Positions 12,365-45,924 of a stretch of DNA of 64,000 nucleotides are shown one piece after another. A program made the translations under genes and the position numbers. Positions within the stretch are counted from its first letter, which is position 1. Each line of letters starts with the position of its first letter. The DNA lies in NCBI GenBank assembly GCA_964422745.1, contig CAYRCK010000010.1, forward strand, positions 11,136-75,135, given 5' to 3'. The stretch is from an uncultured bacterium (lineage in GTDB: Bacteria > Krumholzibacteriota > Krumholzibacteriia > Krumholzibacteriales > Krumholzibacteriaceae). Below the pieces are notes generated by a model, which was given only the letters and a program-made list of their open reading frames with translations, ran no database searches and was not told where the DNA came from.

Positions 12365-14035
12365 CTATTTCTTTCCCTCCTTGCTCCATTCCATCTTCTT
12401 CAGCTCGCCGCGCCTTATCTTGCCGCTCACAGTCTTCGGAAGATCCTTCACGTACTCTATCGCCCGCGGGTACTTGTATGGAGCTGTGACCGTCTTGACA
12501 TGATCCTGAAGCTCCTTGGTCAGCTTCTCGCTGGGCCTGAAATCCTCGGCTAGAATGACGAAGGCCTTTACTATCTCACCCCTGACCTCGTCGGGCGAGG
12601 CGACGACGGCGGCCTCGACCACCGCCGGGTGCTCGACGAGCGCGCTCTCCACCTCGAAGGGCCCTATGCGGTACCCCGCCGACAGGATCACGTCGTCGGC
12701 GCGCCCGACGAACCAGAAGTAACCGTCCTCGTCCCTGTAGGCCTTGTCACCCGTATAGTAATAATCGCCCTGGAAGACACCCGCCGTCTCCTCCGGCTTC
12801 TTCCAGTACTCCTTGAACAGGCCCACAGGCCGCTCCGGCTTGACCTTCACCGCCACGTACCCCTCCTCACCTACCGGTGCCTCCTTGCCCTCGTCGTCGA
12901 GAACCCGTACGTCGAATCCCGGTGTAGGCAGGCCCATCGATCCTATCTTGATCGGCTTGCACCGGAAGCTCGCACAGAGGTTCACCGTCTCGGTCTGGCC
13001 GTACCCGTCGTAGATCTTTAGCCCCGTCGCATTCTCCCATATGTTTATGATCTCAGGATTCAGCGGCTCGCCGGCACTCATGCAGTGGCGCAGCGACGAA
13101 AGGTCGTACTCCCCGAGCGGAAGCTGGGCGAACATCCGGTAAGCGGTCGGCGGGGCGCAGAACGTCGTTATCCCCTGGTTCTGTATCATCCTGAGCGTCA
13201 GTTTCGCGTCGAATTTCCCCCTCGAGCTGTGGTTGTATACGGCCGCTCCTGCGGTCCACTGCCCGAAGAGGCTCCCCCACGCGGCCTTCGCCCAGCCCGT
13301 ATCGGTCACGGTCCAGTGCAGATCGGTGGGCTTCAGGTCCTGCCAGAAGGTGGCGGTTATCCTGTGCCCGATGGCATACGAGGCCTGGGTGTGAAGAACC
13401 ATCTTGGGGTAGGAGACCGTGCCCGATGTGAAGTACAGCAGCATCGTGTCGTCGCTGTGCGTCTTCTCCACACCCTCTAGAACCGGTGAGGCCTTGTCCA
13501 TGACGCCGTTCCAGTCGAGCCAACCGAGCCTGCGGCCGGTGGCTAGGATGCATACCCGCAGCGACTTGCACCTGTCGAGCACCTCCTCGACCTTCGATGC
13601 GTCCTGGATATCGGTCACCACGCCGACCGCGCCCGATTCGTCCAGCCTGTAGCGTATATCCTTCGGCGTGAGCAGCGTCGTCGATGGTATGGGGATCACA
13701 CCGAGCTTTATCATCCCTATCATCGCAATGTACCACTGCGGCATCCAGTGCAGCATGAGCATCACCCGGTCGCCCTTCTTCAATCCCTGCTCCCGCAAAG
13801 CGTTGGCGAACTTGTTGGAGAGCCTGCTCACCTCGTAGAATGTTCGTTTCTTTATTATCTCGCCGTCCTCGTCGGCGATCATGAGCGCCAGCTTCGTCCT
13901 GTCCTCGGCCCACTTGTCCACAACATCGAATCCGAAGTTGAAGTACTCGGGAACCTCGAGCTCGAATTCCTCGCGCGTCTTCTCGTAGTCGGTCATGTTC
14001 GCAGGCTGGGCCCCACCGGTAACATTCATGATCAC
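12365..14035 (-). CDS. Short/medium-chain acyl-CoA synthetase (ACSM-like)
   Basis: YFTSGTVSYPK, SAGEPL, YGQTET, TGD, GYRIGPFEVES, PKTVSGKIRR. Confidence 0.92.
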   Translation of the reverse strand: MIMNVTGGAQPANMTDYEKTREEFELEVPEYFNFGFDVVDKWAEDRTKLALMIADEDGEIIKKRTFYEVSRLSNKFANALREQGLKKGDRVMLMLHWMPQWYIAMIGMIKLGVIPIPSTTLLTPKDIRYRLDESGAVGVVTDIQDASKVEEVLDRCKSLRVCILATGRRLGWLDWNGVMDKASPVLEGVEKTHSDDTMLLYFTSGTVSYPKMVLHTQASYAIGHRITATFWQDLKPTDLHWTVTDTGWAKAAWGSLFGQWTAGAAVYNHSSRGKFDAKLTLRMIQNQGITTFCAPPTAYRMFAQLPLGEYDLSSLRHCMSAGEPLNPEIINIWENATGLKIYDGYGQTETVNLCASFRCKPIKIGSMGLPTPGFDVRVLDDEGKEAPVGEEGYVAVKVKPERPVGLFKEYWKKPEETAGVFQGDYYYTGDKAYRDEDGYFWFVGRADDVILSAGYRIGPFEVESALVEHPAVVEAAVVASPDEVRGEIVKAFVILAEDFRPSEKLTKELQDHVKTVTAPYKYPRAIEYVKDLPKTVSGKIRRGELKKMEWSKEGKK

Positions 14036-20471: not shown

Positions 20472-21677
20472 ATGCTTAAAGATCTTCTCAGACCGAACGA
20501 TTCGAAGATTATCCTCCTGATCATGGATGGGCTTGGCGGAATCAGGAACGATGATTTCCCGAAGACCGCCCTCGATGCCGCCGAGACCCCGAACCTCGAC
20601 AGGCTTGCACGAGAGGGACTTTGCGGTAGGACCATGCCGATATCGACCGGCATCACGCCGGGAAGCGGACCGGCCCATTTCGCGCTGTTCGGCTATGACC
20701 CTCTTGCGCCCGAAAACGACGTCGGGAGAGGCGCCCTCGAGATAACCGGTGTTGGATACGAACTCGCAGAGGGGGACGTGGCCATAAGGGGCAACTTCGC
20801 CACGATGGATCCTGACGGCGTGCTCACCGACAGGCGGGCAGGACGTATTCCGCACGAAGAATGCGAGCGTCTATGTGAAAAACTAGGAGAAGGGATCACG
20901 GAGATCGATGGAGCGGAAATTACGATCATGCCCGTTCGCGAATACAGATTCGGCGTCGTGCTCAAAGGTGACGGATTGTCCGCGGAAGTAGATGAAACCG
21001 ATCCTCAGCTTACTGGTGAGAGACCGCTCATCCCCAGGGCCCGCCGCAAGGAAGCGGAGCGCACGGCCAAGATCATCGGTGAGTTCGTGAAGATGTCGAA
21101 CGGGATACTCTCTGACGAGGAGAAGGCGAACACCGTGCTCATGAGGGGCATCTCCATGAAACCAGTCATCGAACCCTTCAAGGAAAGGTTCGGCCTCGAG
21201 GCCGCGGCAATAGCCGCTTACCCGCTCTACAGGGGGGTCGCCGGCCTCTGCGGAATGAAGCTTATACCAACGGGATTCACGGTAGAGGAGGAGTTCGAGA
21301 CGGTTCGCTCCATATACGGCGGCGGCTACGACTTTTTCTTCATCCACATCAAGAAGACGGACTCCTACGGGGAGGACGGCAATCTGGAGGGCAAGGTCAA
21401 GGTGATCGAGGAGGTGGACTCTAACCTCCCCGCGCTACTCGACCTGAAGCCACAGACGATAGTCGTAACCGGCGATCACTCGACCCCGTGCGCACTGAAG
21501 AGCCACTCGTGGCATCCAGTTCCATTCTTGATTAATTCGAAGTTCTGCGGCAGGGACCGAACCGGCGCGTTCAGTGAAGAGGAATGCGACCGCGGGGCCC
21601 TCGGTGTTTTCCAGGCCGAGAAGATCATGGAGCTCGCACTTGCCAACTCAGGCAAGCTGAAGAAGCACGGTGCCTAG
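20472..21677 (+). CDS. apgM: 2,3-BPG-independent phosphoglycerate mutase (archaeal-type ApgM)
   Basis: MDGLGG, A.TPNLD, PGSGPAH, GRGALE, HIKKTDSYGEDG, TGDHSTP..HSWHPVP; AGGAG RBS before ATG 20472. Confidence 0.92.
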   Translation: MLKDLLRPNDSKIILLIMDGLGGIRNDDFPKTALDAAETPNLDRLAREGLCGRTMPISTGITPGSGPAHFALFGYDPLAPENDVGRGALEITGVGYELAEGDVAIRGNFATMDPDGVLTDRRAGRIPHEECERLCEKLGEGITEIDGAEITIMPVREYRFGVVLKGDGLSAEVDETDPQLTGERPLIPRARRKEAERTAKIIGEFVKMSNGILSDEEKANTVLMRGISMKPVIEPFKERFGLEAAAIAAYPLYRGVAGLCGMKLIPTGFTVEEEFETVRSIYGGGYDFFFIHIKKTDSYGEDGNLEGKVKVIEEVDSNLPALLDLKPQTIVVTGDHSTPCALKSHSWHPVPFLINSKFCGRDRTGAFSEEECDRGALGVFQAEKIMELALANSGKLKKHGA

Positions 21678-25902: not shown

Positions 25903-26790
25903 ATGTTAAGAGGGTTGTATGTCGCGCTTGTGACACCGTTCAACGCCGACAGCAGCTTGAACGAGGAAAAGCTGAGAGAGCTGGTCAGGTTTCATGTCGA
26001 TGCCGGTACCGACGGTCTCGTCCCGTGCGCGACTACGAGCGAGAATCCCGCATACACATGGGAAGAGCACTTTAAAATAATGGAGACGGTGGTTGACGAA
26101 GCCGCCGGAAGGTTGAATGTCGTCGCGGGCTGTGGAACGAATTCGACCACCAAATCCATCGAGAACATAGTGAAGGGCCGGGAGCTGGGCATAGACGGCG
26201 CAATGGTTGTAACACCTTACTACAACAAGCCTACCCAGGAAGGGCTCTACGCGCACTTCATGAAGCTCGCGGACGAAGGCGGCCTGCCCCTCATGCTCTA
26301 CAACGTCCCCGGACGAACCGGAGTGAATATGAAGCCTTCGACCGTTGCGAGGCTCGCCAAGCACGATAATATCGTGGCTGTAAAGGAGGCCAGCGGAAAC
26401 GTCGAGCAGATGTCCGAGATCATCCATCTGTGCGGTTCCGACATATCTCTGCTGTCGGGGGACGACGCCATAACACTCCCCATACTGTCCATCGGGGGGA
26501 AGGGCGTCGTAAGCGTTGTCGGAAACATCGTGCCGAAGGACGTGCTCTCGATGATCGCGGCGTTCGAAAAGGGGAACATGGCCGAAGCGCTCGAATGGCA
26601 CTACAAGCTTCTGCCCCTGAACCAGTCGATGTTCATAGAGACCAACCCGATGCCGGTCAAAGAGGCGATGAACATCATCGGCATGGAGGTTGGAGATGTA
26701 AGGCTGCCGCTGGTCAGGATGCTCCCCGAGAACAGGGAGAAGCTGAGGGGCGCGCTCGAGGAATACGGCCTGCAGAAGGTGGCCGTCTAG
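25903..26790 (+). CDS. dapA: 4-hydroxy-tetrahydrodipicolinate synthase
   Basis: ALVTPF, ATTSE, PYYNKP.QEG, LYNVPGRT, KEASG, LSGDD, FIETNP.PVK. Confidence 0.95.
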   Translation: MLRGLYVALVTPFNADSSLNEEKLRELVRFHVDAGTDGLVPCATTSENPAYTWEEHFKIMETVVDEAAGRLNVVAGCGTNSTTKSIENIVKGRELGIDGAMVVTPYYNKPTQEGLYAHFMKLADEGGLPLMLYNVPGRTGVNMKPSTVARLAKHDNIVAVKEASGNVEQMSEIIHLCGSDISLLSGDDAITLPILSIGGKGVVSVVGNIVPKDVLSMIAAFEKGNMAEALEWHYKLLPLNQSMFIETNPMPVKEAMNIIGMEVGDVRLPLVRMLPENREKLRGALEEYGLQKVAV

Positions 26791-26813: not shown

Positions 26814-27578
26814 ATGATAAGGATAATCATCAATGGAGCCCTAGGCAGGATGGGCAGATTGATCACCGAAGAGGTGGAAGCGGATAACGGCCTCGAGCTC
26901 GCCGGTGCGGTCGAAGCCGCCGGTCATGAAGGGCTGGGAACCGCCGTTTCGGGAATAGAGGTAACGGACAGCCTGCGGGAGATCATTGAAAAAGGAGACG
27001 TGATCGTAGATTTCACGAATCCGGAGTCGGCGCTCGGCCTCATCCATGCATGCTCCGAATCCAAGAAAGCGGCGGTTGTGGGCACGACGGGATTCTCGGT
27101 GGAGCAGCTCGTAGAGATTCGAAAGGCATCCGAAAAAACCGCGCTGTTCATGAGCCCTAATATGTCGGTAGGCGTCAATCTGATGTTCAAGGTGACCGGG
27201 GACGTGGCGGCGGCGCTTCCCGATTTCGACATCGAGATATCGGAGATCCATCACAACAGGAAAAAGGACTCGCCCAGCGGAACCGCCTCCAAGCTTGCGG
27301 ATATCGTAGAGGAGGCGAGGCCCGGGGCCGATCGCGTCCACGGACGCCGCGGCATGGTCGGCACACGCAACAAGAAGGAGATAGGGATACACTCGCTTCG
27401 GGGCGGGGATGTCGTGGGCGAACACACCGTGGTCTTCGCGGGCGAAGGAGAGCGTTTCGAATTGACTCACAGGGCGCACTCGCGCAGAACGTTCGCGCGC
27501 GGCGCCATCCGGGCCATGCATTTCATCTCGAACAAGAGGCCCGGGCTGTACTCCATGGCCGACGTACTCGGATTCTGA
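26814..27578 (+). CDS. dapB: 4-hydroxy-tetrahydrodipicolinate reductase
   Basis: GALGRMG, DFT.P, GTTG, EIHHNRKKDSPSGTA, FARGA. True start ATG 26814; the ORF-track extension to 26430 overlaps dapA. Confidence 0.95.
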   Translation: MIRIIINGALGRMGRLITEEVEADNGLELAGAVEAAGHEGLGTAVSGIEVTDSLREIIEKGDVIVDFTNPESALGLIHACSESKKAAVVGTTGFSVEQLVEIRKASEKTALFMSPNMSVGVNLMFKVTGDVAAALPDFDIEISEIHHNRKKDSPSGTASKLADIVEEARPGADRVHGRRGMVGTRNKKEIGIHSLRGGDVVGEHTVVFAGEGERFELTHRAHSRRTFARGAIRAMHFISNKRPGLYSMADVLGF

Positions 27579-27590: not shown

Positions 27591-29012
27591 CTACAGGTTG
27601 AAGCATACGACCCTCGGCTCGGTCATCTCCTGCAACGCGAATTTAATGCCCTCGCGTCCAAGCCCGCTGTTTTTCACACCGCCGAACGGCATCATGTCGA
27701 TCCTGTAATCGGTGGAGTCGTTTACCATGACACCGCCGACGTCCAAACCCCGTATCGCCCTGAAGGCATTACCGAGATCCTTAGTGAAGATGGCGGCGTG
27801 CAGGCCGAAGTCAACATCATTGGCCCGTTCAATGGCCTCGTCCAGGTCATCCACCGGGTATAGATTCACTGTCGGAGCGAACACCTCTTCCCTGTCAACC
27901 TTGCTCCCCGCAGGAACATCGGCGAGTACCGTCGGATCATATACGGCGCCCTTTCGATTCCCGCCGGTCAGCACCCTCGCACCGTCTTTCACGGCCTCCT
28001 TGACCCAGGCCTCTATCCTCTTGGCCTCCTCCTCGTTGATCATCGGCCCCATATCCGTATCCTCTTCGAGCTTTGGTCCCACCTTCATCCTTCGGGTGCC
28101 GGCCACGAAGAGCGTCTCGAAGCGTTTGTATATCCCCTTTTCGATGTAAATGCGCTGCACGCCGATACAGTTCTGCCCCGCTGCCCAGAATGCGCCCGAT
28201 ATGCACGATCCGACGGCCTGATCGAGCTCGCAGTCGCCGCACACTATAACGGGCGAGTTCGAACCGAGCTCCATGCCGATCTTCTTGAGCCCGGCCTTCT
28301 TTGCTATCTCGCTACCCGCTTCCACTCCGCCCGTGAAGCTGATCATCCTGATACGCGGATCGGTGACGAGCGCATCCCCGATCTTCGAGCCGTACCCCGT
28401 TACGATATTTAGAACATCGGCCGGCAGCCCGGCATCCATCAGTGCCTTTCCCAGCATTAGAGCCGAGAGCGGGGTCACCGTGGCCGGTTTCAGAACAACG
28501 GAGTTACCCGCCGCTATCGCCGGACCGAGCTTGTGCGCCACCAGGTTCAGCGGATCGTTGAACGGCGTGATCGCCGCGATTATCCCGATCGGGAACCTGA
28601 AGTAGTATCCCAGCCGGTTCTCCGAGCCCGGTGATGAACTAAAGGGAATGGTCTCGCCATCTATCCGCCGCGCCTCTTCCGCGGATATCGTCATCGTCTG
28701 TACGGCGCGGGCCACCTCTTTCCTGGCCTCCCGTATGGTCTTGCTTCCCTCGCAGGCGATCGTCCTTGCATATTCCTCAGAGCTGCCCTCAACGACCGAA
28801 GCGGCATTCTTCAGTATCTCCATGCGTTTGTGCACCGGGAGGCCGCTGTTGACGGCGAATCCCCTCTGTGCGGATTCTATCGCGGCTTCCACGTCCTTCT
28901 CGGTGCCCGACGGAACGGTATCCAGAACGGAGTTATCGTACGGGTCGCGAACCTCGATCGTCTCTTTCCTATCTATCCATTTACCAGCAATAAGCATCTT
29001 CATGTCGGCCAT
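27591..29012 (-). CDS. NAD(P)-dependent aldehyde dehydrogenase (lactaldehyde-DH/GapN-like subgroup)
   Basis: ITPFNDP, KPA..TP, FTGG, MELGSN, GQNCIG, EEVFAP, MPFGGVKNSG.GREG. Confidence 0.92.
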   Translation of the reverse strand: MADMKMLIAGKWIDRKETIEVRDPYDNSVLDTVPSGTEKDVEAAIESAQRGFAVNSGLPVHKRMEILKNAASVVEGSSEEYARTIACEGSKTIREARKEVARAVQTMTISAEEARRIDGETIPFSSSPGSENRLGYYFRFPIGIIAAITPFNDPLNLVAHKLGPAIAAGNSVVLKPATVTPLSALMLGKALMDAGLPADVLNIVTGYGSKIGDALVTDPRIRMISFTGGVEAGSEIAKKAGLKKIGMELGSNSPVIVCGDCELDQAVGSCISGAFWAAGQNCIGVQRIYIEKGIYKRFETLFVAGTRRMKVGPKLEEDTDMGPMINEEEAKRIEAWVKEAVKDGARVLTGGNRKGAVYDPTVLADVPAGSKVDREEVFAPTVNLYPVDDLDEAIERANDVDFGLHAAIFTKDLGNAFRAIRGLDVGGVMVNDSTDYRIDMMPFGGVKNSGLGREGIKFALQEMTEPRVVCFNL

Positions 29013-29091
29013 TCCCTTTCTATTGAATCAGTTCGACCGGCCAACCGGCACGCGCGGCGTTGCGTCCATCCGCGCTGCGCCGGATGAGCCG

Positions 29092-30123
29092 TTATTCGGC
29101 TTTGGACATCCTGTGAATGGCGAGCAGATCCGCAAGCAGCGAGAATCCGGTCTCCACCTTTCCAGCCCCCGGCCCCACGATTGTTATCTCACCCAGGAGG
29201 TCGGTTACGAATGTAAGGGCGTTTGTCGCGCCTCCGACCGATGCCAGCGGATCCGTCAGGTCGACCCTCTCGGGTTTCACCGATGCGCGCACTCCGTCCT
29301 TTTCCCTGGTGACCTTGGCGATAAGCTTCCAGCGCTTGCCCTCCCGCTTCGCCTCTTCGATATCATCGAGCGAGATTCCAGTTATCCCGGTCCTGTCCAC
29401 ATCCTTTACGGTGATATCCGCGCCCATCACGCTCTTCGCCAGAATCATGACCTTGGCCAGGGCGTCCCATCCCTCGACATCCGCATCCGGCTTTGCCTCG
29501 GCATACCCGAGCTCCTGAGCCTCCTTCAGAACATCGGCGTAATCGCGGCCCTCCTCCATATTGCACAGTATGAAGTTCGTCGTGCCGTTCATGATCCCCC
29601 TGATCTCGCTCACTTCGTTCCCGGCCAGGCAGAACTCCTCCAAGTTCAAAGCCGGCGTTCCGGCGAGAACCGTCCCCTCGTACCTGAACTGCACGCCTTT
29701 GCCGGCCGCCAGCTCGGCCAGCTCATGGAAATACAGTGCCGTCGGACCCTTGTTGGTCGTTATCAGGTGCTTCCCCGATTCGAGGGCGGCCCTGAAGTGA
29801 CTGTAAGCCGGTTCACCTGTCTCTATGTCCGTGAATGATACCTCGATCACGACATCGGCACCTGAGGCCTCTATCGTTTCCAGGGCGTCCTTTCCCGTCT
29901 CCGCGCCCGGGTAATCGGAGATCCTGTCCCCGGCGGCGAGCTCGAGAAGCTTGCCGGCGTCCAGCCCCTCCGGATTCATGGCCGAGCCCTTCTTGAAATC
30001 GCTCACGGCGACAACCGAATAATCGAATCCGAACATCCTTTTGAGATCCTTCCCCTTCTTCAGAAGGATCTCGGCCAGACCCTGCCCAACGACACCAAAT
30101 CCTATGAATGCGAGCTTCAGCAT
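29092..30123 (-). CDS. hom: Homoserine dehydrogenase (short form, no ACT domain)
   Basis: IGFGVVG, ITTNKGP, YEGTVLAG.P, GIMNGTTNFIL, AQELGYAE.P.ADVEG.D..AK, GPGAG..ET; GGAGG RBS before ATG 30123. Confidence 0.92.
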   Translation of the reverse strand: MLKLAFIGFGVVGQGLAEILLKKGKDLKRMFGFDYSVVAVSDFKKGSAMNPEGLDAGKLLELAAGDRISDYPGAETGKDALETIEASGADVVIEVSFTDIETGEPAYSHFRAALESGKHLITTNKGPTALYFHELAELAAGKGVQFRYEGTVLAGTPALNLEEFCLAGNEVSEIRGIMNGTTNFILCNMEEGRDYADVLKEAQELGYAEAKPDADVEGWDALAKVMILAKSVMGADITVKDVDRTGITGISLDDIEEAKREGKRWKLIAKVTREKDGVRASVKPERVDLTDPLASVGGATNALTFVTDLLGEITIVGPGAGKVETGFSLLADLLAIHRMSKAE

Positions 30124-30204
30124 CTCTTTCCTCCTTCGAAATATCCCCTTTTCCAAAACATCCAGGGAATGCCCCGGCAACTCTCGGAAACCCCGGCCGA
30201 CGAA

Positions 30205-30228
30205 CGGCGATCGGCGATCGGCGATCGG
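30205..30228. repeat. Heptamer tandem repeat (CGGCGAT)x3.4
   Basis: Read directly; lies between the lyase gene and hom. Confidence 0.85.
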
Positions 30229-30252
30229 AAGCGCCGCATCCCCGGTCTCCGG

Positions 30253-31440
30253 CTATACGGCGTTCAGGGCATTATCCAGATCATCCATCAGATCCTGAGC
30301 GTCCTCTAGGCCCGCCGAATAGCGTATCATATTATCGGGAACGCCGGCCTTCGCCCGTTCCTCGGGTCCGAGCTGATAATGCGTTGTCGCCGCAGGTTGG
30401 ATCGCCACGGTCTGAGACGAACCCAGGTGCGTCGTATGCACGGCTATGCTCAGGTTATCGATGACCTTCCGTGTCGATTCCAGGCCGCCCTTGACGTTGA
30501 AACTCATCATGGAAGAATACGCGCTCATCGTCTTCTTTGCGGCTTCGTGCTGCGGGTGCGACGGCAGGCCGGGATAGCTGACCGCTTCGATCTTCGGGTG
30601 GTCTTCGAGGAACTTGGCCACTTTCATCGCGTTGCTGCTGTGCCTCTCCATCCTCAGCGACAGGCTCTCGAGCCCCAGCAGGCACAGCCACGAATTGAAC
30701 GGTGAGATCGACGGCCCGATGTTCCTGTATCCTATATGCCTCACATGGTCTATGAACTTCTTCTTCCCGACGATCGCTCCCGACAGGCTGGTCGCGTTCC
30801 CGCTTATGTACTTCGTGGCCGAGTGTATGACTATATCAGCCCCCATCTCTATAGGCCGCATGAGGGCCGGCGTGCAGATGGTGTTATCCACCATCAGGGG
30901 GATCCCCCTCGATTTCGCGAGCCTCACTACCTCGGGAAGGTCCGCGACGAAGAGGTTCGGATTGCTCGGCGACTCGACATGCAGGAGCTTGGTCTTGGGA
31001 GTTATCGCCTTCTCCCAGCTCTCGATCTTGTCGGGCTCCAAAACCCAATTCGTCTTGATCCCCATCCTGGGCATGGATTCCGCGAAGAGCTGTTGGGTCC
31101 CCCCGTACACTCTGACCGAAGATGTGATCTCCTCGCCGGCCTCGACGAGATGATGGGCGACCATGAAAACAGCGGCCATCCCCGATGCCGTGGCGAGCCC
31201 CGCCTCCGCGCCCTCGAGCATCGCAAGCCTCTTCTCGAAGATGTCGTTAGTCGGGTTGTTGATCCTGCCGTACGCGAATCCCTCGATCTTGTAGCTGTAC
31301 AGATCAGCGGCCCATTCGGCGGACTCATACGGGAATACGGCGCTCTGTATGATCGGAGGAGCCATTGTCCTGTATCGAAGCTGCTCCTCCCAGTCGAATC
31401 CACCCTTAACCGCCACCGTATCAAAACGCTTGCCTTTCAC
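30253..31440 (-). CDS. PLP-dependent Cys/Met-metabolism (trans-sulfuration) family enzyme, divergent
   Basis: YGRINNPT, SGMAA, YGGT, ESPSNP, DNT, HSATKY (PLP lysine), V.YPGL, IRYSAGLED. AGGAGG RBS supports GTG 31440. Confidence 0.88.
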   Translation of the reverse strand: MKGKRFDTVAVKGGFDWEEQLRYRTMAPPIIQSAVFPYESAEWAADLYSYKIEGFAYGRINNPTNDIFEKRLAMLEGAEAGLATASGMAAVFMVAHHLVEAGEEITSSVRVYGGTQQLFAESMPRMGIKTNWVLEPDKIESWEKAITPKTKLLHVESPSNPNLFVADLPEVVRLAKSRGIPLMVDNTICTPALMRPIEMGADIVIHSATKYISGNATSLSGAIVGKKKFIDHVRHIGYRNIGPSISPFNSWLCLLGLESLSLRMERHSSNAMKVAKFLEDHPKIEAVSYPGLPSHPQHEAAKKTMSAYSSMMSFNVKGGLESTRKVIDNLSIAVHTTHLGSSQTVAIQPAATTHYQLGPEERAKAGVPDNMIRYSAGLEDAQDLMDDLDNALNAV

Positions 31441-31548
31441 TTTCAAGCCTCCTTTCGACGATCCACAATCATTCAGTATAATGTCCCTTACATCCAATCG
31501 CTCGCGGCTTATCCTTGAATCCCGACAACTGCCGCCCTAGCTTTACCT

Positions 31549-32100
31549 TCACACCGCTTCTTTTTTCCCCGGACCTCCCTTCTTTCCGTTCACCAGGCGG
31601 CCATAATCCCTTTCACCGACGCTCCAGCTTACGGGCAGCGCCGTCTCCTTCTTCAATACGGAGAGGACGAACATCGTCTTAACCTTATCGATACCCTTGA
31701 TCCTCGTCAGCGCGTTAAGCAGGAAATCCTCGTAATCGTCGATATCCCTCGAATAGATCTTGAGAAGATAATCCTCGCCTCCAGCCAAGTGGTAGCACTC
31801 GAGAACGTTCTCGCACATACCGATGAACCTGTGAAAATTCTCGATCGAATCCGACCTGTGCATATTCAGCGAGACGGATGCGAACGCCACCGTTCCCAGG
31901 CCTGTCTTTTTGTTGTCCACGATGGCCGTGTACCTCTCGATCACCTCCCTATCCTCCAGCTTGCGTACGCGCTCGAGGACCGCCGGCGGGCTGAGCCCGA
32001 CCTCGGCGGCCAGCTGAACGTTCGGTATCCGGCCCTGCTCCTGAAGGATCTCTATGATCCGCCGGTCGATAGGATGTAAATCACACTCCTCGTTAGCCAT
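31549..32100 (-). CDS. Lrp/AsnC-family transcriptional regulator
   Basis: DRRIIEILQ..GRI.N..LA..VGLSPPAVLERVRKLE; ECYHLAG..DYLLK. Confidence 0.93.
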   Translation of the reverse strand: MANEECDLHPIDRRIIEILQEQGRIPNVQLAAEVGLSPPAVLERVRKLEDREVIERYTAIVDNKKTGLGTVAFASVSLNMHRSDSIENFHRFIGMCENVLECYHLAGGEDYLLKIYSRDIDDYEDFLLNALTRIKGIDKVKTMFVLSVLKKETALPVSWSVGERDYGRLVNGKKGGPGKKEAV

Positions 32101-32150
32101 ACGACCCCTATTACCTTTCATTATTAATGAATAATGCTAATCTGCCGAAT

Positions 32151-32179
32151 ATTTTAAAGTAATACTAGAAATAAGTCAA
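32151..32179 (-). promoter_or_regulatory. Sigma70 promoter for the lrp-lyase-hom-ALDH unit
   Basis: TTGACT-17 nt-TAAAAT on the minus strand, in an AT-rich stretch. Confidence 0.7.
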
Positions 32180-32249
32180 TAATTATTCTGAAAATGGAGG
32201 CTCATTTCCACCTCCAAACCGCTAACCATCACGCACACATGCCGATACG

Positions 32250-32486
32250 ATGTGCCCGGATACCGCTCACGGCCGTAAGTATTGCTTGCCTATTCGAAAG
32301 GAGGATGTCGTAACCTTCGAGGGCGGTTCATTCGTCACAGATCCGGACGGTCGGATCATCGCGAAGGCGCCCCTTGGAGAGGATTGTATCCTTTACTGCG
32401 ATATGGATCTCGGAACCGTCGAGGCCTCTCACGCGAGGAGGCACTTCCTGAAAGGCCGAAGGCCCGGTATCTACGGAGAGCTCTGA
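32250..32486 (+). pseudogene. C-terminal remnant of a carbon-nitrogen hydrolase (nitrilase family, N-carbamoylputrescine amidase-like)
   Basis: EDVVTFEGGSFVTDPDGRIIAKAPLGEDCILYCDMDL…RRHFLKGRRPGIY matches the family C-terminus; the catalytic E/K/C region is absent. Confidence 0.7.
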
Positions 32487-32495: not shown

Positions 32496-33713
32496 CTACT
32501 CGAACAGCTCGAGGTATTCCCCGTACCCCTCCTTCTCCAGATCCTCTTTCGGTATGAACCTGAGCGAGGCTGAGTTTATGCAGTATCTCATGCCGGCAGG
32601 TCCCGGACCGTCACTGAATAGATGACCGAGATGGGAACCGCCGCCCCTGCTTCTCACCTCGATCCGGACCATCGAATGGCTGAGGTCCTCGTGCTCGGTA
32701 ATGTTATCCTCCTCGAGAGGACGAGTGAAGCTGGGCCACCCGGATCCGGAGTCGTACTTGTCGAGCGAGCAGAAGAGGGGCTCCCCCGTCACCACATCGA
32801 CATATATCCCCTCCCGCTTGTTATCCCAGTACTCGTTTCTGAACGGCGGCTCCGTGCCGCAGTTCTGCGTCACCTTGAACTGCATGGGCGTAAGCTTCTC
32901 TTTGAGGACGGAGATATCGGGCTTCCTATATCCCCTCTCGGACATACCGGCATCCCCGATCGAGCCCGCACCTTTCTCCCCCGGCAGCTCCCCATCTACC
33001 CTATCCCGGGATCCCCGATTCTTTTCCCCGGCGGCATCATCATTCTTCATGGAATCGGCTCCACCGATCCCGGCCGGCACCCCGCCCCCACCCCAAACCC
33101 TATCCAGAAAACGGTCGCGGCCCGATCCCGACCTGTAGCGCTTGTAGCGGGCCGGACATGCCCTGTAATACCCCTGGTGATACCCCTCCGCCTCGTAGAA
33201 GGCATCGAATTCGATCACCGGTGTGACTATCTCGCCTTCGAATACGCCGGAGGAGGCCAGCGCCCTCTTCGAAGCCTCCGCGGCCGCCTTCTGATCGTCG
33301 TTGTGATAGAATATCGCCGTCCGGTACTGCGATCCCCTGTCGACAAACTGTCCTCCCGGATCTGTTGGATCGACGATTCTCCAGAAAACATCCAGGAGTT
33401 TCTCGTAGGAGACCACATCCGGATCGAAATAGACCTGCACGGCTTCAAAGTGGCCTGTATTGCCCGAGCAGACCTCCTCGTAGGATGGATTCCTCTTCGA
33501 TCCACCGGTATACCCAGATATGACCTTTTCCACTCCATCGATTCTTTCGAAGTCCGCCTCCGTACACCAGAAGCATCCCCCTGCAAATGTGGCGACGGCC
33601 GTCCCGCCCCTTCCTACTTCGGTATTCACAACATCCTCCTCACCGGCATAACCTGCATGGCATATGCACAAGATCAACGCAAGCAACGCGGGTATACTAC
33701 GGTACGAATTCAT
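32496..33713 (-). CDS. msrAB: Exported bifunctional methionine sulfoxide reductase MsrA/MsrB
   Basis: Signal peptide; GGCFWC, QYRTAIF (MsrA); [32 protein letters not shown] (MsrB). Confidence 0.95.
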
Positions 33714-34996: not shown

Positions 34997-36976
34997 GTGC
35001 TTATGCGCAGGTATAGTATCAGTATCTCATTACTGCTCATAATCCCGCAGCTGGCATTCGCCGGCATCCCGATACTCTACCCAAACTGGCTCATTGACGG
35101 AGCCCCTGTGACTACAGAAACCGGTACGCAGTGGTTCCCGAGGCTCGTGGCCGATGGCGAGGGCGGAGCCATCATAGCCTGGATGGACAAACGCTCGAAA
35201 GACTACTACGACATCTACGCCCAGAGGATCGACACCGATGGATACATCCTCTGGACAACGGACGGCATCCCAGTCTGCACCGCCGGCGGGGACCAGCGCG
35301 AGCACTGGATCGCCACGGACGGTTCGGGCGGGGCGATCGTTACATGGGCCGATTACCGCAGCGGATCCGACTCGGATATCTACGCCCAGAGGATCGATCC
35401 GAACGGCAACACGATGTGGACCGGCGACGGCGTAGCCGTGTGCTCCGCCGAAGGGGACCAGACCTCACCGCAGATCGTCGAGGACGGCTCGGGCGCAACG
35501 GTGATAACGTGGGTCGACGCGAGAAGCGGCGCGGGTGAAGAGGACATATACGCAATGAAGATCGACCCGGATGGAAATGCGCTCTGGACCTGGCAGGGGG
35601 TCGCCGTCACGGCGGCTTCGCACGATCAATATGCACCGCAGATCACTTCAGACGGCGCCGGAGGCGCCATCATTGCATGGGAGGACAAAAGAGCGGGGGG
35701 AAATCCCGACATCTACGCCCAGAGGATCGACAGCGGGGGAAATGCGCTTTGGACGGCTGACGGCGTGATGGTGAGCCTCTCGGACAGCGCGGACTGCAAT
35801 CTGCGCATGGCGTACGATGAAGACGGCGGAGCTATCTTAACGTGGGATAACAACGGCGGGGGATCCTTCGATATCTTCGCCCAGCGGCTGGATGCCTCTG
35901 GGAATCCCCTTTGGGCTCCCGGAGGTCTGGGCGTTTGCACGGCGCCCTCTCCCCAGATCAAACCGGAGATCGTATCGGATATGGCATCCGGAGCCATCAT
36001 AGCGTGGACCGATCTGCGCAACGTCCTGGGATCGGATATCTACGCCCAGAGAGTCGACGCCGGGGGCGGCATAATGTGGTCCGCCGACGGCGTACTGGTC
36101 TGCGGAGCGGAGAGCAATCAGAGTTATCATAAAATCGCAACGGACGGGCTGGGCGGAGCGGTCATCACCTGGCGTGACGAGCGCGTCGATAACAACAACG
36201 CCGACATATACGCCCAGCGGGTCGATCACGACGGTGGAATTCAATGGACCGAAGGCGGTGTCCGCATTTGCGCCGCAGACGGTCTCCAGACAAAGCCGCA
36301 GCTCGTATATGAGGGCTACTGCGGAGTCATAATCGCCTGGGCCGATTTTCGCAACCTGTACGACTCGGACATATACGCCATGAAGGTATGCGAGGGATTG
36401 CCCCCTGTGGCTACCCTCCTCCAGAGCTCGTCGTGTTCGATCGATGGAGCCGATGTGGTCATAGAATGGACGCTGACCGAAACCGGACCCGACGTTGATT
36501 TCCACGTCTACCGGGCGCCTGCTTATTCAGCCACGTTCGTGGAAATATTCGATCCGCAAATAATAAGGAGCAACCTCAATTTCTCGTTCAGGGACAGGGG
36601 AACGGAACCGGGGCGCTCATACCGGTATGCGGTAGAGATGGAGGACGAATCGGGAAGAAGCACACTGTTCATGACGGATGACGTAACCGTTCCCGCTGCG
36701 TTTCTATCATTGGAGCAGAACCACCCTAATCCATTCAATCCGGTTACGACTATAGGCTATTACGTTCCGCGTGAATGCCGGATCGAGCTCGGCGTTTACG
36801 ATGTTTCCGGCACGCTCGTCAAGCGTGTCACAAGCGGAAGTGTCCCGGCGGGTCATCATAAAGCGACGTGGAGCGGCATCGACGAATCGGGGAGGCCGGC
36901 CGCTTCCGGTGTATACTTCTACCGTCTCAGAGCAGGCAAGGAAGTGATAACCCGCAAGATGACGCTTCTCAGGTGA
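34997..36976 (+). CDS. Secreted 8-repeat beta-propeller-like protein with FlgD-Ig/T9SS-type tail
   Basis: Eight ~55-aa repeats W..DG..V…Q..P.I..DG.GGAII.W.D.R…DIYAQRID; C-terminus QNHPNPFNPVTTI…SGVYFYRL…KMTLLR. Confidence 0.85.
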   Translation: MLMRRYSISISLLLIIPQLAFAGIPILYPNWLIDGAPVTTETGTQWFPRLVADGEGGAIIAWMDKRSKDYYDIYAQRIDTDGYILWTTDGIPVCTAGGDQREHWIATDGSGGAIVTWADYRSGSDSDIYAQRIDPNGNTMWTGDGVAVCSAEGDQTSPQIVEDGSGATVITWVDARSGAGEEDIYAMKIDPDGNALWTWQGVAVTAASHDQYAPQITSDGAGGAIIAWEDKRAGGNPDIYAQRIDSGGNALWTADGVMVSLSDSADCNLRMAYDEDGGAILTWDNNGGGSFDIFAQRLDASGNPLWAPGGLGVCTAPSPQIKPEIVSDMASGAIIAWTDLRNVLGSDIYAQRVDAGGGIMWSADGVLVCGAESNQSYHKIATDGLGGAVITWRDERVDNNNADIYAQRVDHDGGIQWTEGGVRICAADGLQTKPQLVYEGYCGVIIAWADFRNLYDSDIYAMKVCEGLPPVATLLQSSSCSIDGADVVIEWTLTETGPDVDFHVYRAPAYSATFVEIFDPQIIRSNLNFSFRDRGTEPGRSYRYAVEMEDESGRSTLFMTDDVTVPAAFLSLEQNHPNPFNPVTTIGYYVPRECRIELGVYDVSGTLVKRVTSGSVPAGHHKATWSGIDESGRPAASGVYFYRLRAGKEVITRKMTLLR

Positions 36977-43103: not shown

Positions 43104-45332
43104 TCAAACCAGGCTCCCGGAGAATTCGCTCGCGTTTCTCACGAATATCACCGAGTTGAGCTCCTTCGAGAGCTCGATCAACCTCTCGGCATAATCCCCC
43201 TCTTCCCCGACCTCGGGAATCATCAAACCTATGAATATGATATCCGCGGCACTGCTGTTGATCTGTATTATCTCGCTGATCGTCCTGTCCGGGAATTTGA
43301 CTATCACCTTGGCGTCCGCCTCGATCCTGACCGAACTGATCAGATCGTCGAGGCTCTTCTCCATGCTCTCCTTTTCATCCGCGCTCTCGACAACAGAGTG
43401 CAGCACTATGCTGGCCTTCTCCCACTCGCGATTCATCCTGAGCAGATGCGCCAGCAGGAGCATGAGATCGCCGTTGTACTCCATGCCCCCCCACCAAATG
43501 TCGATTCTTCTCTTGAGCGAGTTCCTGTCCACCCGGGTCAGCCGGGATATAAGCGTGCTCTTTCCAATCCTTGAAATCGTCCTCATGACGCGGAGCTGCG
43601 ATACCAGCTTTTCCTTCTTCGCCGGCCATCCAAGCATGACCGTATTCGAGTGCAGGCCGGCGATGCCGTTCGCCTGAACCGTATTGACGGCCCCGGTCAC
43701 GAAATCCGGAGCCACATTGACGTCACAGAAGGCGAGGATGTCGTTCTTCTTCAAGGTCCTGTTCATCTCCTGTTCCGCCCTGTGAACGTCGAGGGAAGCA
43801 CTATCGAGGTCCCCCTCGATAATCTTGCATGCCGTAATTATTCCGTGCTTCTGATTCAAACAGTTCGCTATGTAGACCAGATCGACCTCTTTCTCCACAT
43901 CCTCCGTGAATGTTATGATATGAGGTCTCCAGTTCCTGGGTTCGATCTGATGTTTCTTTAGTTTCAGAAGCGAGAACCTGGCCATCGAAAGCCACATACC
44001 GGCCCTGACATCCCCCCACCTCTTGCTGAGCGTTTTCTTTCGGAGATAGAAGTAAAGGCATATCACAAGAAAGATCGCTATCCCGCATACCTTCGCGCTC
44101 AGCAGGAACATCACGAACAGCGCACCCGCGGAGCCGAGGAGGGACACGTGCCAGGGAACGTTTATCTTCGGTCTGTACGAAGGATCCCCGACCAGCTTCT
44201 CTATCGCCGCGCTGAAATTGATTATAACATAGAGGGTCAGAAACAGAATGGTCACGAATTGGGCGACGGCGTTGAGGTTCCCCAGCGTCACGGCGGCAAG
44301 GGCTAGTGTCCCGGTGATCCATGTGGAGATGGTCGGCTGACCCTTGCCGGAAAGACGTGCGAGGAATCTCGGGGCAAGCCCGTCCCTGGAAAGAGCCTGA
44401 AGAACCCTCGGTCCGGCGAGCACGCTTCCGAAGGCCGATGATAGTATTGCCCCCCACATGCCCGCGAAGACCAATAGAGGACCGAACAGTGCGGTCGATA
44501 CCCAGGCTCCTATCCCCGGCTCCGCGAGCTCCTCGGCGCTTAGATCACCCGCCAGGGCCAGAAAGAACGGTATGATGACGTAGACCGCGGCCCCCGTCAA
44601 CACGGCCAGCATCGTACCTTTGGGGATACTCCGCCTGGGATCACGCAGGTCTCCGCTCATCCCGATCCCGGCGGTGAATCCCGTGACCGCGGGGAAAAAG
44701 ACCGCGAAGACGTACCAGAATCCCCGGGGAGCCGTCCTGAATGTCGCCTCCATCTCCGGGGCCTTGAGATCGTTCGAGAGAACGCCTATGACCAGGGCCG
44801 CAATCGACAGCCCCACCGCTATTATTATCGGCACCTGGAGCTTCAGGGCGAGAGAGGCGCTTTTGCCGGAAAGCGCCGTAATAACTATGATTATCAAAGC
44901 GGTCAGCAGCTGGATCGTGTGCGGCGGCATCACTCCCAGGCTTGACGGCCAGAGCACCGCGAGGCTCTCCGCCAATCCGAAACTATAGAACGTGATGCTG
45001 AGGGTCCGGCACAGGTATAGGGGTATACCAATCGCCCCTCCGAGCTCTAGCCCCAGGCTGTGGGCTATCAAGTAATACTCCCCGCCGACACCGACCCGCA
45101 TATTCGTGGATATGGCGGACGCGCTCAAACCCGTTATGAATGTGATCGAGCTCGATAGGATAACCACCATAATGGTCAGCGGAAGCCCGAGGTTGCCCAC
45201 GACCCAGCCGAACCTCAGAAACATTATCAGGCCGATTATTGTCAGAACACTCGGTGTGTACACACCGAGGAACGTCCCGAACTTCGGGGCCTCGCCGGCG
45301 GTTTGCACGCCCGCATCCGCGTCAGCGCTCAT
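43104..45332 (-). CDS. SLC12-like cation-chloride cotransporter / APC permease
   Basis: FGTFLGVYTPSVLTIIG, GGEYYLI, FFPAVTGFTAG..MSGDL..P..SIP.GT, C-terminal NWRP domain. Start ATG 45332 preferred. Confidence 0.88.
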   Translation of the reverse strand: MSADADAGVQTAGEAPKFGTFLGVYTPSVLTIIGLIMFLRFGWVVGNLGLPLTIMVVILSSSITFITGLSASAISTNMRVGVGGEYYLIAHSLGLELGGAIGIPLYLCRTLSITFYSFGLAESLAVLWPSSLGVMPPHTIQLLTALIIIVITALSGKSASLALKLQVPIIIAVGLSIAALVIGVLSNDLKAPEMEATFRTAPRGFWYVFAVFFPAVTGFTAGIGMSGDLRDPRRSIPKGTMLAVLTGAAVYVIIPFFLALAGDLSAEELAEPGIGAWVSTALFGPLLVFAGMWGAILSSAFGSVLAGPRVLQALSRDGLAPRFLARLSGKGQPTISTWITGTLALAAVTLGNLNAVAQFVTILFLTLYVIINFSAAIEKLVGDPSYRPKINVPWHVSLLGSAGALFVMFLLSAKVCGIAIFLVICLYFYLRKKTLSKRWGDVRAGMWLSMARFSLLKLKKHQIEPRNWRPHIITFTEDVEKEVDLVYIANCLNQKHGIITACKIIEGDLDSASLDVHRAEQEMNRTLKKNDILAFCDVNVAPDFVTGAVNTVQANGIAGLHSNTVMLGWPAKKEKLVSQLRVMRTISRIGKSTLISRLTRVDRNSLKRRIDIWWGGMEYNGDLMLLLAHLLRMNREWEKASIVLHSVVESADEKESMEKSLDDLISSVRIEADAKVIVKFPDRTISEIIQINSSAADIIFIGLMIPEVGEEGDYAERLIELSKELNSVIFVRNASEFSGSLV

Positions 45333-45348
45333 GATGCCTTCAAACCCA

Positions 45349-45924
45349 TTACATGCTCCGACCCTGTTCCGGCTTCTCCCACAGCACCGTCCGGCTTCTG
45401 GCCACGTCCGGATTACTGACAATCTCGAATCCCGTTTTTGAAGCGGTGGAAACGGTTATCCCGAACTCGTCTTCGGAAATGTGCCCCTTGGGCTCCGCAA
45501 GAAACATACGCCCCCCTTGCTTCAACGCCCGATAAACTTGCGAGAACATGGCCGCCGAGTCCGGAACCTCGTGCGCGACGGCGAAAGCGCACGCGAAATC
45601 CATCTGCCCATCGAGATCTTCGATACCCAGAGAGTCCCGCCCGCAAACGCGCGTTTCGATAATCTCCAGCAGGCCGGCCCTGCGTGCCCGCTTGACGAGA
45701 ACGTCGATCATCCTCTGCTGCACGTCGACACAGATCACCCTGCCCCCCGGCCCGACAATCCTCGCCATCTGAAGGCTGAAGAAACCCATGGCGCATCCTA
45801 TATCGAGAACCTTCATGCCATCGGCAAGGTACGGAGACAGTATCTTTTTCGGATTTTGAACGAGCTTCCTCAAGGGGATGGAAAGAAAATAACCAACCCA
45901 TATAGGGCATACTCCATGTGCCAC
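45349..45924 (-). CDS. Class I SAM-dependent methyltransferase
   Basis: VLDIGCAMGFF, VDVQ..M, HEVPD, LKQGG..AEP; GGAGG RBS before GTG 45924. Confidence 0.88.
   Translation of the reverse strand: MAHGVCPIWVGYFLSIPLRKLVQNPKKILSPYLADGMKVLDIGCAMGFFSLQMARIVGPGGRVICVDVQQRMIDVLVKRARRAGLLEIIETRVCGRDSLGIEDLDGQMDFACAFAVAHEVPDSAAMFSQVYRALKQGGRMFLAEPKGHISEDEFGITVSTASKTGFEIVSNPDVARSRTVLWEKPEQGRSM

Follow-up and report, generated by a model that had tools for sequence, protein, structure and literature searches.

A conserved gene cluster of Krumholzibacteriota that may convert a γ-substituted amino acid via homoserine to aspartate

The lower pathway from homoserine to aspartate, as well as the architecture in which a pyridoxal phosphate (PLP)-dependent γ-enzyme, a homoserine dehydrogenase (HSD), and an aldehyde dehydrogenase (ALDH) are encoded together with an Lrp/AsnC-type regulator, is already known from Rhizobiales and Pseudomonas. 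A purified rhizobial γ-lyase converts canavanine to homoserine, and the Pseudomonas sequence of HSD, ALDH, and aspartase, which leads from homoserine over aspartate to fumarate, was reconstituted in vitro (PMC9533460). Here, we describe a related arrangement in an uncultured sediment bacterium of the family Krumholzibacteriaceae. It lies within a 64,000-nucleotide (nt) stretch of contig CAYRCK010000010.1 (positions 11,136 to 75,135 of the forward strand), referred to below as the window, which was analyzed together with the 20-kb flanks of the loci of relatives. The sequence-only reading of the window had singled out four genes running in one direction, and open reading frames (ORFs), Pfam, NCBIfam, and public gene calls agreed that this block (27591 to 32100) is intact and lies entirely on the minus strand. 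The genes, given in the direction of transcription, are the following:

31549-32100, minus strand: Lrp/AsnC-family regulator (183 amino acids [aa]; an alternative ATG lies at 32121)
30253-31440, minus strand: Cys/Met-metabolism PLP enzyme of family PF01053 (395 aa, GTG start; the ORF reaches 31497)
29092-30123, minus strand: monofunctional, ACT-less homoserine dehydrogenase, Hom (343 aa)
27591-29003, minus strand: non-phosphorylating ALDH of family PF00171 (470 aa; the ORF start is at 29012)

The reading that we favor, at a probability of roughly 0.5, is that the cluster serves a catabolic or salvage route in which a γ-substituted amino acid would be converted to homoserine, aspartate semialdehyde (ASA), and finally aspartate under Lrp control. 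The PLP enzyme would supply homoserine by removing the γ-substituent of a γ-substituted 2-aminobutyrate and adding water, a chemistry modeled on canavanine γ-lyase (CangL). Hom would then oxidize L-homoserine to L-aspartate 4-semialdehyde, and the ALDH would irreversibly oxidize this ASA to L-aspartate, so that two NAD(P)H would be gained overall. The Lrp/AsnC protein is predicted to turn the genes on in response to an amino acid ligand. The parts of this scheme differ in strength. Taken alone, Hom and the ALDH quite probably lead from homoserine to aspartate, and this conversion, proposed already in the sequence-only reading, gained comparative support from synteny, translational coupling, and homology to rhizobial pairs. 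The direction from homoserine through ASA to aspartate is suggested by homology to clusters whose function has been examined by experiment. The PLP enzyme is a more tentative homoserine-former, with a nearly even chance of being one; its formation of homoserine, its substrate, and the ligand of the regulator are what we infer. The genes stand in the order of the predicted steps (PLP, Hom, ALDH), and the catabolic reading explains this order, the occurrence of variable upper modules with a constant lower module, and the homology to the rhizobial clusters.

A plasmid search with the Hom protein returned 126 records, with Priestia plasmids as the best matches (56% identity) and many rhizobial plasmids among the others (47 to 48%). 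Likewise, among 2327 plasmids with some ALDH match, the best ones to the window ALDH were mostly Hom adjacent. On plasmid pRLG201 of Rhizobium leguminosarum WSM2304, the gene order is ABC transporter, PF01053 enzyme, SMR/Gdx, HSD, ALDH, DapA, (aspartase), and AsnC, in agreement with the rhizobial canavanine cluster (PMC9533460). The canavanine cluster resembles the window in having a PF01053 PLP enzyme, an ACT-less HSD, an ALDH, an Lrp/AsnC regulator, and a nearby dapA gene. The identities of the pRLG201 proteins to those of the window are 48% for Hom, 52% for the ALDH, 37% for DapA, and 33% for the PLP enzyme; however, the last value is an ordinary inter-subfamily identity, and the WSM2304 PLP enzyme belongs to another clade. 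The canavanine cluster also carries Gdx and an ABC importer, whereas the window has no Gdx guanidine exporter, ABC importer, or aspartase; neither a Gdx/SMR exporter nor an ABC importer was found in the gene calls within ±10 kb of the cluster or among the conserved Krumholzibacteriota neighbors. The ALDH cofactor motif reads KPSEFTP in Rhizobium and KPATVTP in the window, and the hosts differ as well, a plant-associated proteobacterium in one case and an uncultured phylum of the FCB group in the other.

A second rhizobial locus is located on plasmid pRL8 of R. johnstonii 3841, where the HSD gene (WP_011654697.1, which is pRL80071) is followed by an ALDH gene, with overlapping stop and start codons. 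The two proteins are 47% (Hom) and 53% (ALDH) identical to those of the window, and this locus too includes an Lrp/AsnC regulator gene, together with homoserine kinase and ABC transporter genes nearby. According to PMC10228743, which cites Vanderlinde et al. 2014, this HSD is the one to which consumption of homoserine in the pea rhizosphere is assigned; its gene, induced there, has homoserine catabolism genes nearby. This HSD belongs to the "oxidation-only" family described in Arthrobacter nicotinovorans, which has a GxGxxN motif and is specific to NAD (bioRxiv 10.1101/2021.02.09.430557). The pRL8 locus differs from the window in its GxGxxN-type HSD, its ABC transporters, and its class-V PLP enzyme, which shows no homology to the one in the window. 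Both this class-V enzyme and the class-III "aminotransferase" of CB782 were considered as CangL candidates and rejected, as they are unrelated to the window PLP enzyme.

The closest Hom-ALDH pair of a cultured organism (56% and 62% identity, respectively) was found on plasmids of Priestia megaterium/aryabhattai in the order eutB, pdxS, M24 peptidase, cyclodeaminase, CGS-family PLP enzyme (PRK08249, 764 bits), M20 peptidase, Hom, ALDH, and MFS transporter. This Hom shares the GFGVVG motif with the window protein, and here again a PF01053 enzyme is encoded upstream. The PLP enzyme, however, is a member of another subfamily, with no more than 36% identity, and the ectoine/hydroxyectoine-type hydrolase genes and the transporter are absent from the window. 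To our knowledge, the Priestia cluster has been annotated but not studied experimentally. It recurs in marine metagenome contigs; besides P. aryabhattai plasmid pG5MAi6_1 (locus L089, 16673 to 28037), loci L144, L159, and L161 carry it. The cluster looks like one for ectoine/hydroxyectoine-type degradation in which ASA would be reached via a PLP γ-enzyme and homoserine, and not via a diaminobutyrate transaminase. In ectoine degradation by DoeC/DoeD (Ssd/Atf), a class-III transaminase makes ASA, an ALDH converts it to aspartate, and DoeX, of the AsnC/Lrp type, regulates the genes. The reaction predicted for the window ALDH is the same as that of DoeC (ASA to aspartate), but the window has no transaminase, DoeA, or DoeB, and ASA would come through Hom.

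Relatives close to the window PLP protein carry the labels Latescibacteria or Krumholzibacteriota, and the window itself has a counterpart in a 79-kb JGI metagenome contig. For a systematic survey, one genome per GTDB species was scanned with an alignment of PLP relatives, which yielded 80 loci, and tblastn was then run with the window proteins. The order Lrp-PLP-Hom-ALDH was found in about 22 of the 24 informative Krumholzibacteriota species representatives, with identities to the window of 77 to 91% for the PLP enzyme, 67 to 78% for Hom, and 70 to 80% for the ALDH. The flanks of the cluster vary among these genomes, and dapB-dapA mostly adjoins it or lies at most 5 kb away. Median extrapolated gaps across the Krumholzibacteriota loci are 28, 44, and 84 nt, and Hom and ALDH are in contact in several species. 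Beyond this phylum, a Fidelibacterota contig carries all four genes (PLP, 65%; Hom, 55%; ALDH, 68%), and a Geothermarchaeota contig encodes the PLP enzyme (52%), Hom (49%), and the ALDH (53%) plus a divergent Lrp/AsnC protein. The unclassified contig L093 has Lrp, a 465-aa "long" MetY-like PLP enzyme, Hom, and the ALDH, separated by 27, 19, and 6 nt. The regulator gene comes first in the cluster, and its product is 62 to 79% identical to that of the window in Krumholzibacteriota, 46% in Fidelibacterota, and 43% in contig L093. Because it is conserved across phyla, the four-gene arrangement is far beyond chance. A lack of synteny between the ALDH and hom in other genomes had been named as grounds to refute the sequence-only reading, and such synteny is clearly present.

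The robust core of the cluster is the Hom-ALDH pair. In Acidobacteria, Aminicenantes, and others, ALDHs that are about 70% identical to that of the window adjoin Hom, and the pair stands solitary in Acidobacteria and downstream of dnaE in locus L094; elsewhere, it lies beside a pair of Hom and long PLP genes. We also scanned metagenomes with an ALDH alignment led by an archaeal sequence; in 55 loci, the contig reached 1.2 kb or more upstream of the ALDH gene. In 41 of these 55, the ALDH gene directly follows a co-oriented hom gene; the extrapolated gap has a median of about −8 nt and is at most 20 nt in 31 of the 41. In contrast to this constancy, what precedes Hom-ALDH varies: at least five modules, either paralogous or unrelated, were seen in this slot. 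Two of them consist of the short PLP enzyme as in the window and of the long PLP enzyme; the others are the PRK08249 CGS-family enzyme plus an M20 peptidase, a MocR-like aminotransferase accompanied by a protein X and a cupin, and CangL with Gdx. Such variation above a constant Hom-ALDH pair is the picture expected when different upper modules share one lower pathway. The long PLP clade also occurs in seven-gene clusters with aminotransferase, SDR, cupin, and X genes, divergent from Hom-ALDH. An exchange of upper modules is seen in bin44 (complete genome CP070727.1), in which the PLP gene is solitary at the ancestral site and a second site carries Lrp, a MocR-like aminotransferase, the 419-aa protein X, Hom, and the ALDH; the regulator gene thus accompanies Hom-ALDH and not the PLP gene.

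A side result of the metagenome survey was a protein family of about 412 to 419 aa with an N-terminal YGGPKEI motif and no Pfam or NCBIfam match. It is the commonest upstream partner of Hom-ALDH in that survey (14 loci), with members such as L137 (5480 to 6718), L133, L134, L145, L150, and L165, and is usually accompanied by a small Cupin_2 protein and often by a MocR-like class-I aminotransferase and an SDR. Protein X of bin44 (L085, 4558 to 5817), for which Pfam and NCBIfam likewise gave no match, is a distant member (21 to 23% identity, E values down to 6e-10). The family may comprise an enzyme, hitherto uncharacterized, that feeds the homoserine node.

The window Hom exceeds the cutoff of NF004912 (434 bits versus 373), consists of the NAD_binding_3 and Homoserine_dh domains without ACT, and has the A. 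fulgidus HSD 3DO5 as its best Protein Data Bank (PDB) match. Closer inspection revealed the motifs GFGVVG and VAVSD and the catalytic motif DVEGWDALAK. It is 56% identical to the Hom of the Priestia plasmid, 47 to 48% identical to the pRL80071-type catabolic HSDs of Rhizobium, and 59% identical to the Hom of candidate division B38.

The ALDH matches PF00171 with 522 bits and reaches no NCBIfam cutoff. Its best NCBIfam model is the methanogen lactaldehyde dehydrogenase NF040648 (528 versus 650), and the archaeal GapN model NF040869 gives 353 versus a cutoff of 780. In the PDB, moss ALDH21 matches best; this NADP-dependent succinate-semialdehyde dehydrogenase acts on the deaminated analogue of ASA. 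The catalytic motifs MELGS, with the general-base/hydrolytic Glu, and GQNC, with the Cys, are kept, and the enzyme should therefore be irreversible and non-acylating, working from aldehyde to acid only. A Glu at the cofactor-discriminating position marks NAD-specific ALDHs. In the window enzyme, the motif KPATVTP has Thr in its place, which casts doubt on the earlier label of an NAD-type ALDH and suggests that it uses NADP+ or both cofactors. The identity to Hom-adjacent ALDHs is 51 to 53% in Rhizobium and 62% in Priestia, compared with 31% to an unrelated ALDH in one Rhizobium locus. In a neighbor-joining tree, the Hom-linked and aminotransferase-linked ALDHs formed one subfamily, at least 51% identical to the window ALDH; some relatives (46 to 54%) are paired with a class-III aminotransferase, as in y4uB/y4uC of pNGR234a and in metagenome loci. 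Such pairs follow the logic of DoeD and DoeC, in which ASA is likewise formed, and we count this kinship in favor of ASA as the substrate of the window ALDH. The sub-cutoff scores together with the Hom synteny led us to reject an identity as GapN or lactaldehyde dehydrogenase, and automatic labels such as "NADP-dependent GAPDH," which JGI gives to relatives of this ALDH, are probably wrong. Across Krumholzibacteriota, Acidobacteria, Aminicenantes, and Fidelibacterota, the ALDH is 68 to 71% identical, whereas the adjacent Hom reaches only 52 to 57%, which suggests a very strong constraint or lateral exchange among co-resident sediment lineages.

The PLP enzyme matches PF01053 with 426 bits but reaches no NCBIfam equivalog cutoff. 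The best NCBIfam model is the sulfhydrylase TIGR01326 (423.7 versus 495.1), followed by the OSHS model NF006003 (406 versus a cutoff of 522), the methionine γ-lyase (MGL) model TIGR01328 (389 versus 550), and TIGR01325 (385 versus 510). The nearest structures are the C. freundii MGL (352 bits), with an identity of about 45% as estimated by eye from the alignment, and an OAH/OAS sulfhydrylase (335 bits). With MetY, MetZ, and MGL, the window enzyme shares the fold, the family, the PLP lysine, the YGGT motif, and the carboxylate-binding Arg. MGL differs in its characteristic Cys and K-D, where the window enzyme has Gly (in YGGT) and R-N; Cys116 and Lys240/Asp241 of the P. putida MGL are what we take to be the MGL-specific active-site residues. 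MetY differs in an insertion that the window enzyme does not have: the latter has 395 aa, and its TIGR01326 match is split into two stretches. Furthermore, no metX/metA partner gene is linked to the window gene. Since every curated cutoff was missed, we rejected a standard MetY, MetZ, or MGL. The idea that it might be a canavanine lyase fared no better: the identity is 33% to the Rhizobium WSM2304 enzyme in the CangL position, 36% to the Priestia CGS-family enzyme, and 36 to 38% to the long MetY-like clade (L093, L087, and L070), so that it is no closer to CangL than to other PF01053 subfamilies, and a linked guanidine exporter is absent. By these comparisons, the window protein represents a distinct, uncharacterized "short MetY-like" clade.

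Further genes of the aspartate family were sought in the window by tblastn with asd, aspartate kinase, thrC, and thrH queries, by Pfam analysis of the other large ORFs, and in the gene calls from 21 to 41 kb. As far as covered by these searches, the window holds no metX/metA, thrB/thrC, lysC, or asd, just as the sequence-only reading had it. The flanks of about 30 related clusters also contain no metX/metA, although these genes may still reside elsewhere in the genome, and no homoserine kinase gene adjoins the PLP-Hom unit in the clusters examined.

With no CangL orthologue and no Gdx, canavanine is an unlikely substrate. The equilibrium of S-adenosylhomocysteine hydrolase shows that thioether hydrolysis is strongly uphill. 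In our view, O- or N-substituted homoserine analogues would thus be thermodynamically easier substrates than methionine or homocysteine; they might include canavanine/canaline-like compounds, 2,4-diaminobutyrate, O-acyl- or O-alkyl-homoserines, and possibly a sulfonium such as S-adenosylmethionine (SAM). More broadly, one may imagine a "homoserine funnel" in Krumholzibacteriota, Fidelibacterota, Aminicenantes, Acidobacteria, B38, and Geothermarchaeota. In such a funnel, the two MetY-like clades, PRK08249 with the M20 peptidase, and the MocR-like enzyme with protein X and the cupin would all make homoserine, each from other γ-substituted amino acids, the window PLP enzyme being a new homoserine-forming γ-lyase/hydrolase, and homoserine would be converted to aspartate by the ALDH or, in B38, by asd and aspartate kinase running in reverse for ATP. 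As a whole, we regard this extension as improbable.

Several observations weigh against a catabolic route that starts at the PLP enzyme. By family models, structures, and identities alike, its clade is nearest to sulfhydrylases and MGL and not to CangL. Members at 50 to 57% identity in Heimdallarchaeota and others have no Hom or ALDH nearby, and in some lineages the PLP gene stands alone amid housekeeping genes, once among rpsO, pnp, tig, and clpPX. Two Krumholzibacteriota loci (L009 and L010) have Lrp-PLP-Hom with no ALDH within 10 kb. In candidate division B38, the unit consists of Lrp, the PLP enzyme (70%), Hom (59%), asd, and aspartate kinase, on its face a biosynthetic aspartate-to-homocysteine operon, and the bona fide dapA and dapB genes adjacent to the window cluster lend it an aspartate-family biosynthetic flavor. 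In Krumholzibacteriota, neither the gene calls nor the conserved neighbors include a linked transporter or upstream catabolic enzyme, which suggests a substrate that is intracellular or imported by general systems. The window Hom has GFGVVG and not the GxGxxN hallmark proposed for oxidation-only HSDs, for which the pRL8 HSD has GFGGVN; however, the Priestia Hom, which stands in a catabolic context, also has G at this position, and GxGxxN is therefore perhaps not universal in catabolic HSDs.

The neighbors of the PLP clade in other lineages are a further point on this side. In Bacteroidales/Marinilabiliales, the gene order is long PLP, short PLP, thrC, thrH, SDR, and a third PLP gene, and in locus L069, the PLP-clade gene adjoins thrC and a gene for a TIGR02535 "proposed homoserine kinase." The former cluster was seen in metagenome-assembled genomes (MAGs) at L066, L067, L070, L071, L073, L076, and L078, at about 8.4 to 15.3 kb of each locus; the short PLP enzyme is about 51% identical to that of the window, the third one is MGL-like, and an esterase gene comes next in L078. 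ThrH is a phosphoserine phosphatase/homoserine phosphotransferase, and three γ-family PLP enzymes thus stand beside enzymes that make and use O-phosphohomoserine. This context would fit the catabolic reading if homoserine made by the PLP enzyme went on to threonine. All contexts place both MetY-like clades at the homoserine node, and what differs is whether homoserine or its ester is the product or the substrate.

The rival explanation that survives best, which we nevertheless consider unlikely, is methionine biosynthesis, with the PLP enzyme as a short MetY/MetZ-like homocysteine synthase, Hom as a biosynthetic enzyme, and the Lrp-type protein as a feedback regulator. The PLP enzyme may then use O-phosphohomoserine, or unactivated homoserine together with sulfide, which abounds in the habitats, and the ALDH would be a side branch that returns ASA or homoserine to aspartate or would act on some other aldehyde. 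Synthesis of methionine dependent on O-phosphohomoserine has been reported from the Chlorobi branch of the FCB group. In favor of this explanation, the B38 operon contains all steps from aspartate to homoserine plus the PLP enzyme, sulfhydrylases are the best family models of the PLP enzyme, which also has the YGGT motif, and the clade is linked to makers and users of O-phosphohomoserine (thrC with thrH, or TIGR02535) in Bacteroidales and other loci. The solitary PLP genes in housekeeping contexts, the absence of ALDH from L009 and L010, the adjoining dapA and dapB genes, and a Hom of the archaeal biosynthetic type, with GxGxxG, point in the same direction. What it leaves unexplained is the most conserved link of all, an irreversible ALDH translationally coupled to Hom; to coexpress an enzyme that destroys ASA with a biosynthesis that uses ASA would be wasteful. 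Furthermore, there is no acyltransferase or kinase in any of the Hom-containing clusters examined, and no SAM riboswitch or T-box was detected in the window or in 17 related loci. Lrp, Hom, and ALDH stay together in bin44 even though the aminotransferase and protein X have taken the place of the PLP enzyme, the seven-gene clusters with the long PLP enzyme are unlike methionine synthesis, and the thrC/thrH context fits the supply of homoserine for threonine by the PLP enzyme equally well.

Very improbable, in our judgment, is a second explanation, which forms a sub-case of the favored catabolic route and would absorb the B38 arrangement: two variants of one fermentation, in which ASA is turned into aspartate either by the ALDH, without ATP, or by asd and aspartate kinase in reverse, as in B38, with a gain of one ATP, in analogy to GapN versus GAPDH plus PGK. 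The B38 genes asd and aspartate kinase sit downstream of Hom exactly at the slot of the ALDH in sister lineages, peptidases and an amidohydrolase are encoded in the flanks of the B38 loci, and the reactions of Asd and aspartate kinase are both reversible. Yet asd with a dapG-type aspartate kinase gene behind it is a classical combination in biosynthesis, we saw no sign that B38 has a second asd, and we know of no in vivo precedent for asd and aspartate kinase working in reverse. A search with the B38 Asd was uninformative on asd in Krumholzibacteriota, as its best 120 matches (61 to 100% identical) came from other lineages. The B38 unit (L032, 6871 to 12015; L099, 7153 to 12257), which is kept on a second, 182-kb contig, includes no homoserine-activating enzyme. 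It is either a compact operon that leads from aspartate to homocysteine and skips activation or a version of the catabolic route that involves phosphorylation, and the catabolic reading needs for it a separate biosynthetic role or asd and aspartate kinase running backwards.

The weakest alternative, an ALDH unrelated to its neighbors (of the GapN type, or a lactaldehyde or succinate-semialdehyde dehydrogenase) with an adjacency that is merely historical, draws on the JGI label of its relatives, the lactaldehyde dehydrogenase model at 528 bits, the moss ALDH21 match, and the window spacer of about 88 nt between Hom and ALDH, but is the least probable of all in view of the sub-cutoff scores (528 versus 650 and 353 versus 780) and of the Hom adjacency, mostly overlapping or touching, in several bacterial phyla, one archaeon, and plasmids of cultured bacteria.

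What is new relative to the rhizobial and Pseudomonas systems is that the module is widespread in uncultured phyla of sediment and the subsurface and in at least one archaeon, that it is joined to two uncharacterized MetY-like clades and to further upper modules, and that asd and aspartate kinase replace the ALDH in a sister lineage. If the favored reading is true, a route from homoserine to aspartate would be common in uncultured sediment and subsurface phyla, beyond plant-associated proteobacteria and an Arthrobacter. Some MetY-like enzymes automatically annotated as "O-acetylhomoserine sulfhydrylase" would then be lyases with another job, so that metabolic reconstructions would over-call methionine prototrophy and under-call amino acid degradation, and new γ-lyase chemistries and substrates could be expected. 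If the methionine explanation is true instead, methionine would be synthesized without a linked homoserine-activating enzyme in sulfidic habitats. In practice, the annotation of "O-acetylhomoserine sulfhydrylase" and "GapN" genes in MAGs would be affected.

As for the control of the cluster, the regulator has the HTH_AsnC-type, HTH_24, and AsnC_trans_reg domains, and its best NCBIfam model is Lrp, with 107 bits versus a cutoff of 233; this score makes it a member of the family and not an Lrp orthologue. The following signals were identified around the genes:

32151..32179, minus strand: sigma-70-like motif TTGACT-17-TAAAAT within an AT-rich intergenic spacer, about 50 nt before the Lrp ATG (32100)
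30162..30177, minus strand: hairpin of 6 pairs followed by a T-run in the PLP-Hom spacer, from a scan for terminator-like sites

The sequence-only reading had placed all four genes behind one promoter. The motif does exist and matches 10 of 12 consensus positions, as established by a consensus scan and direct reading, although the promoter rules of this phylum may differ. Promoter-like sites numbered 5 in the region versus 2.2 ± 1.4 in shuffles, which makes the motif upstream of Lrp a reasonable candidate promoter but statistically not a compelling one, which may or may not serve all four genes. The intergenic gaps in the window are 108 nt (Lrp-PLP), 129 nt (PLP-Hom), and about 88 nt (Hom-ALDH). 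The scan of the region revealed no strong terminator between the four genes; terminator-like sites were no more numerous than in shuffles, and the hairpin in the PLP-Hom spacer is weak and probably insignificant. From this layout, cotranscription of the four genes is plausible. Directly upstream of the −35 hexamer of Lrp, a 12-pair hairpin with an A/T-rich tail (32187 to 32218, minus strand) may terminate transcription of the upstream msrAB gene or serve as a palindrome to which the regulator binds. No Rfam family, including SAM, lysine, and T-box leaders, was detected at the cluster, and together with the result for the 17 related loci, this led us to reject control by a riboswitch or T-box. 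The GC content of the cluster (0.57 to 0.60) is the same as in the rest of the window, and composition thus gives no sign of a horizontal island.

Downstream, the cluster is met convergently by two plus-strand genes whose products both consume ASA:

25903-26790, plus strand: dapA (TIGR00674, 345 versus 206)
26850-27578, plus strand: dapB (TIGR00036, 250 versus 122)

These genes are convergent with the ALDH gene and are conserved neighbors that probably do not belong to the operon; Hom-ALDH clusters of Rhizobium likewise hold a dapA paralogue (PMC9533460). Upstream, a plus-strand ORF (32292 to 32483; 66 aa in the public gene call) matches residues 207 to 270 of a 270-aa carbon-nitrogen hydrolase with 59% identity and is probably the remnant of a truncated hydrolase, since sister genomes have the full gene here, between DUF4097 and the cluster. 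A minus-strand gene immediately upstream of the cluster (32496 to 33713) encodes a fused MsrA-MsrB protein with PMSR and SelR domains and an N-terminal signal-like hydrophobic segment. This adjacency is probably coincidental, as in other genomes only a SelR gene was seen near locus L004. An ORF farther away (20472 to 21677, plus strand) was considered as an "alternative homoserine kinase" of TIGR02535 and rejected (187 versus 446); it encodes a cofactor-independent phosphoglycerate mutase of the apgM type (NF003160, 539 versus 468). The window further contains tandem AMP-binding, acyl-CoA synthetase-like genes (590 and 556 aa; 10592 to 14035, minus strand), a PFK-family gene (4817 to 6049), and a gene for a 772-aa SLC12-type amino acid permease fusion (43104 to 45422). 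It also encodes several large secreted proteins (for example, at 34997 to 36976) whose C-terminal domains are of the FlgD_ig or T9SS type, which fits an organism of the FCB group.

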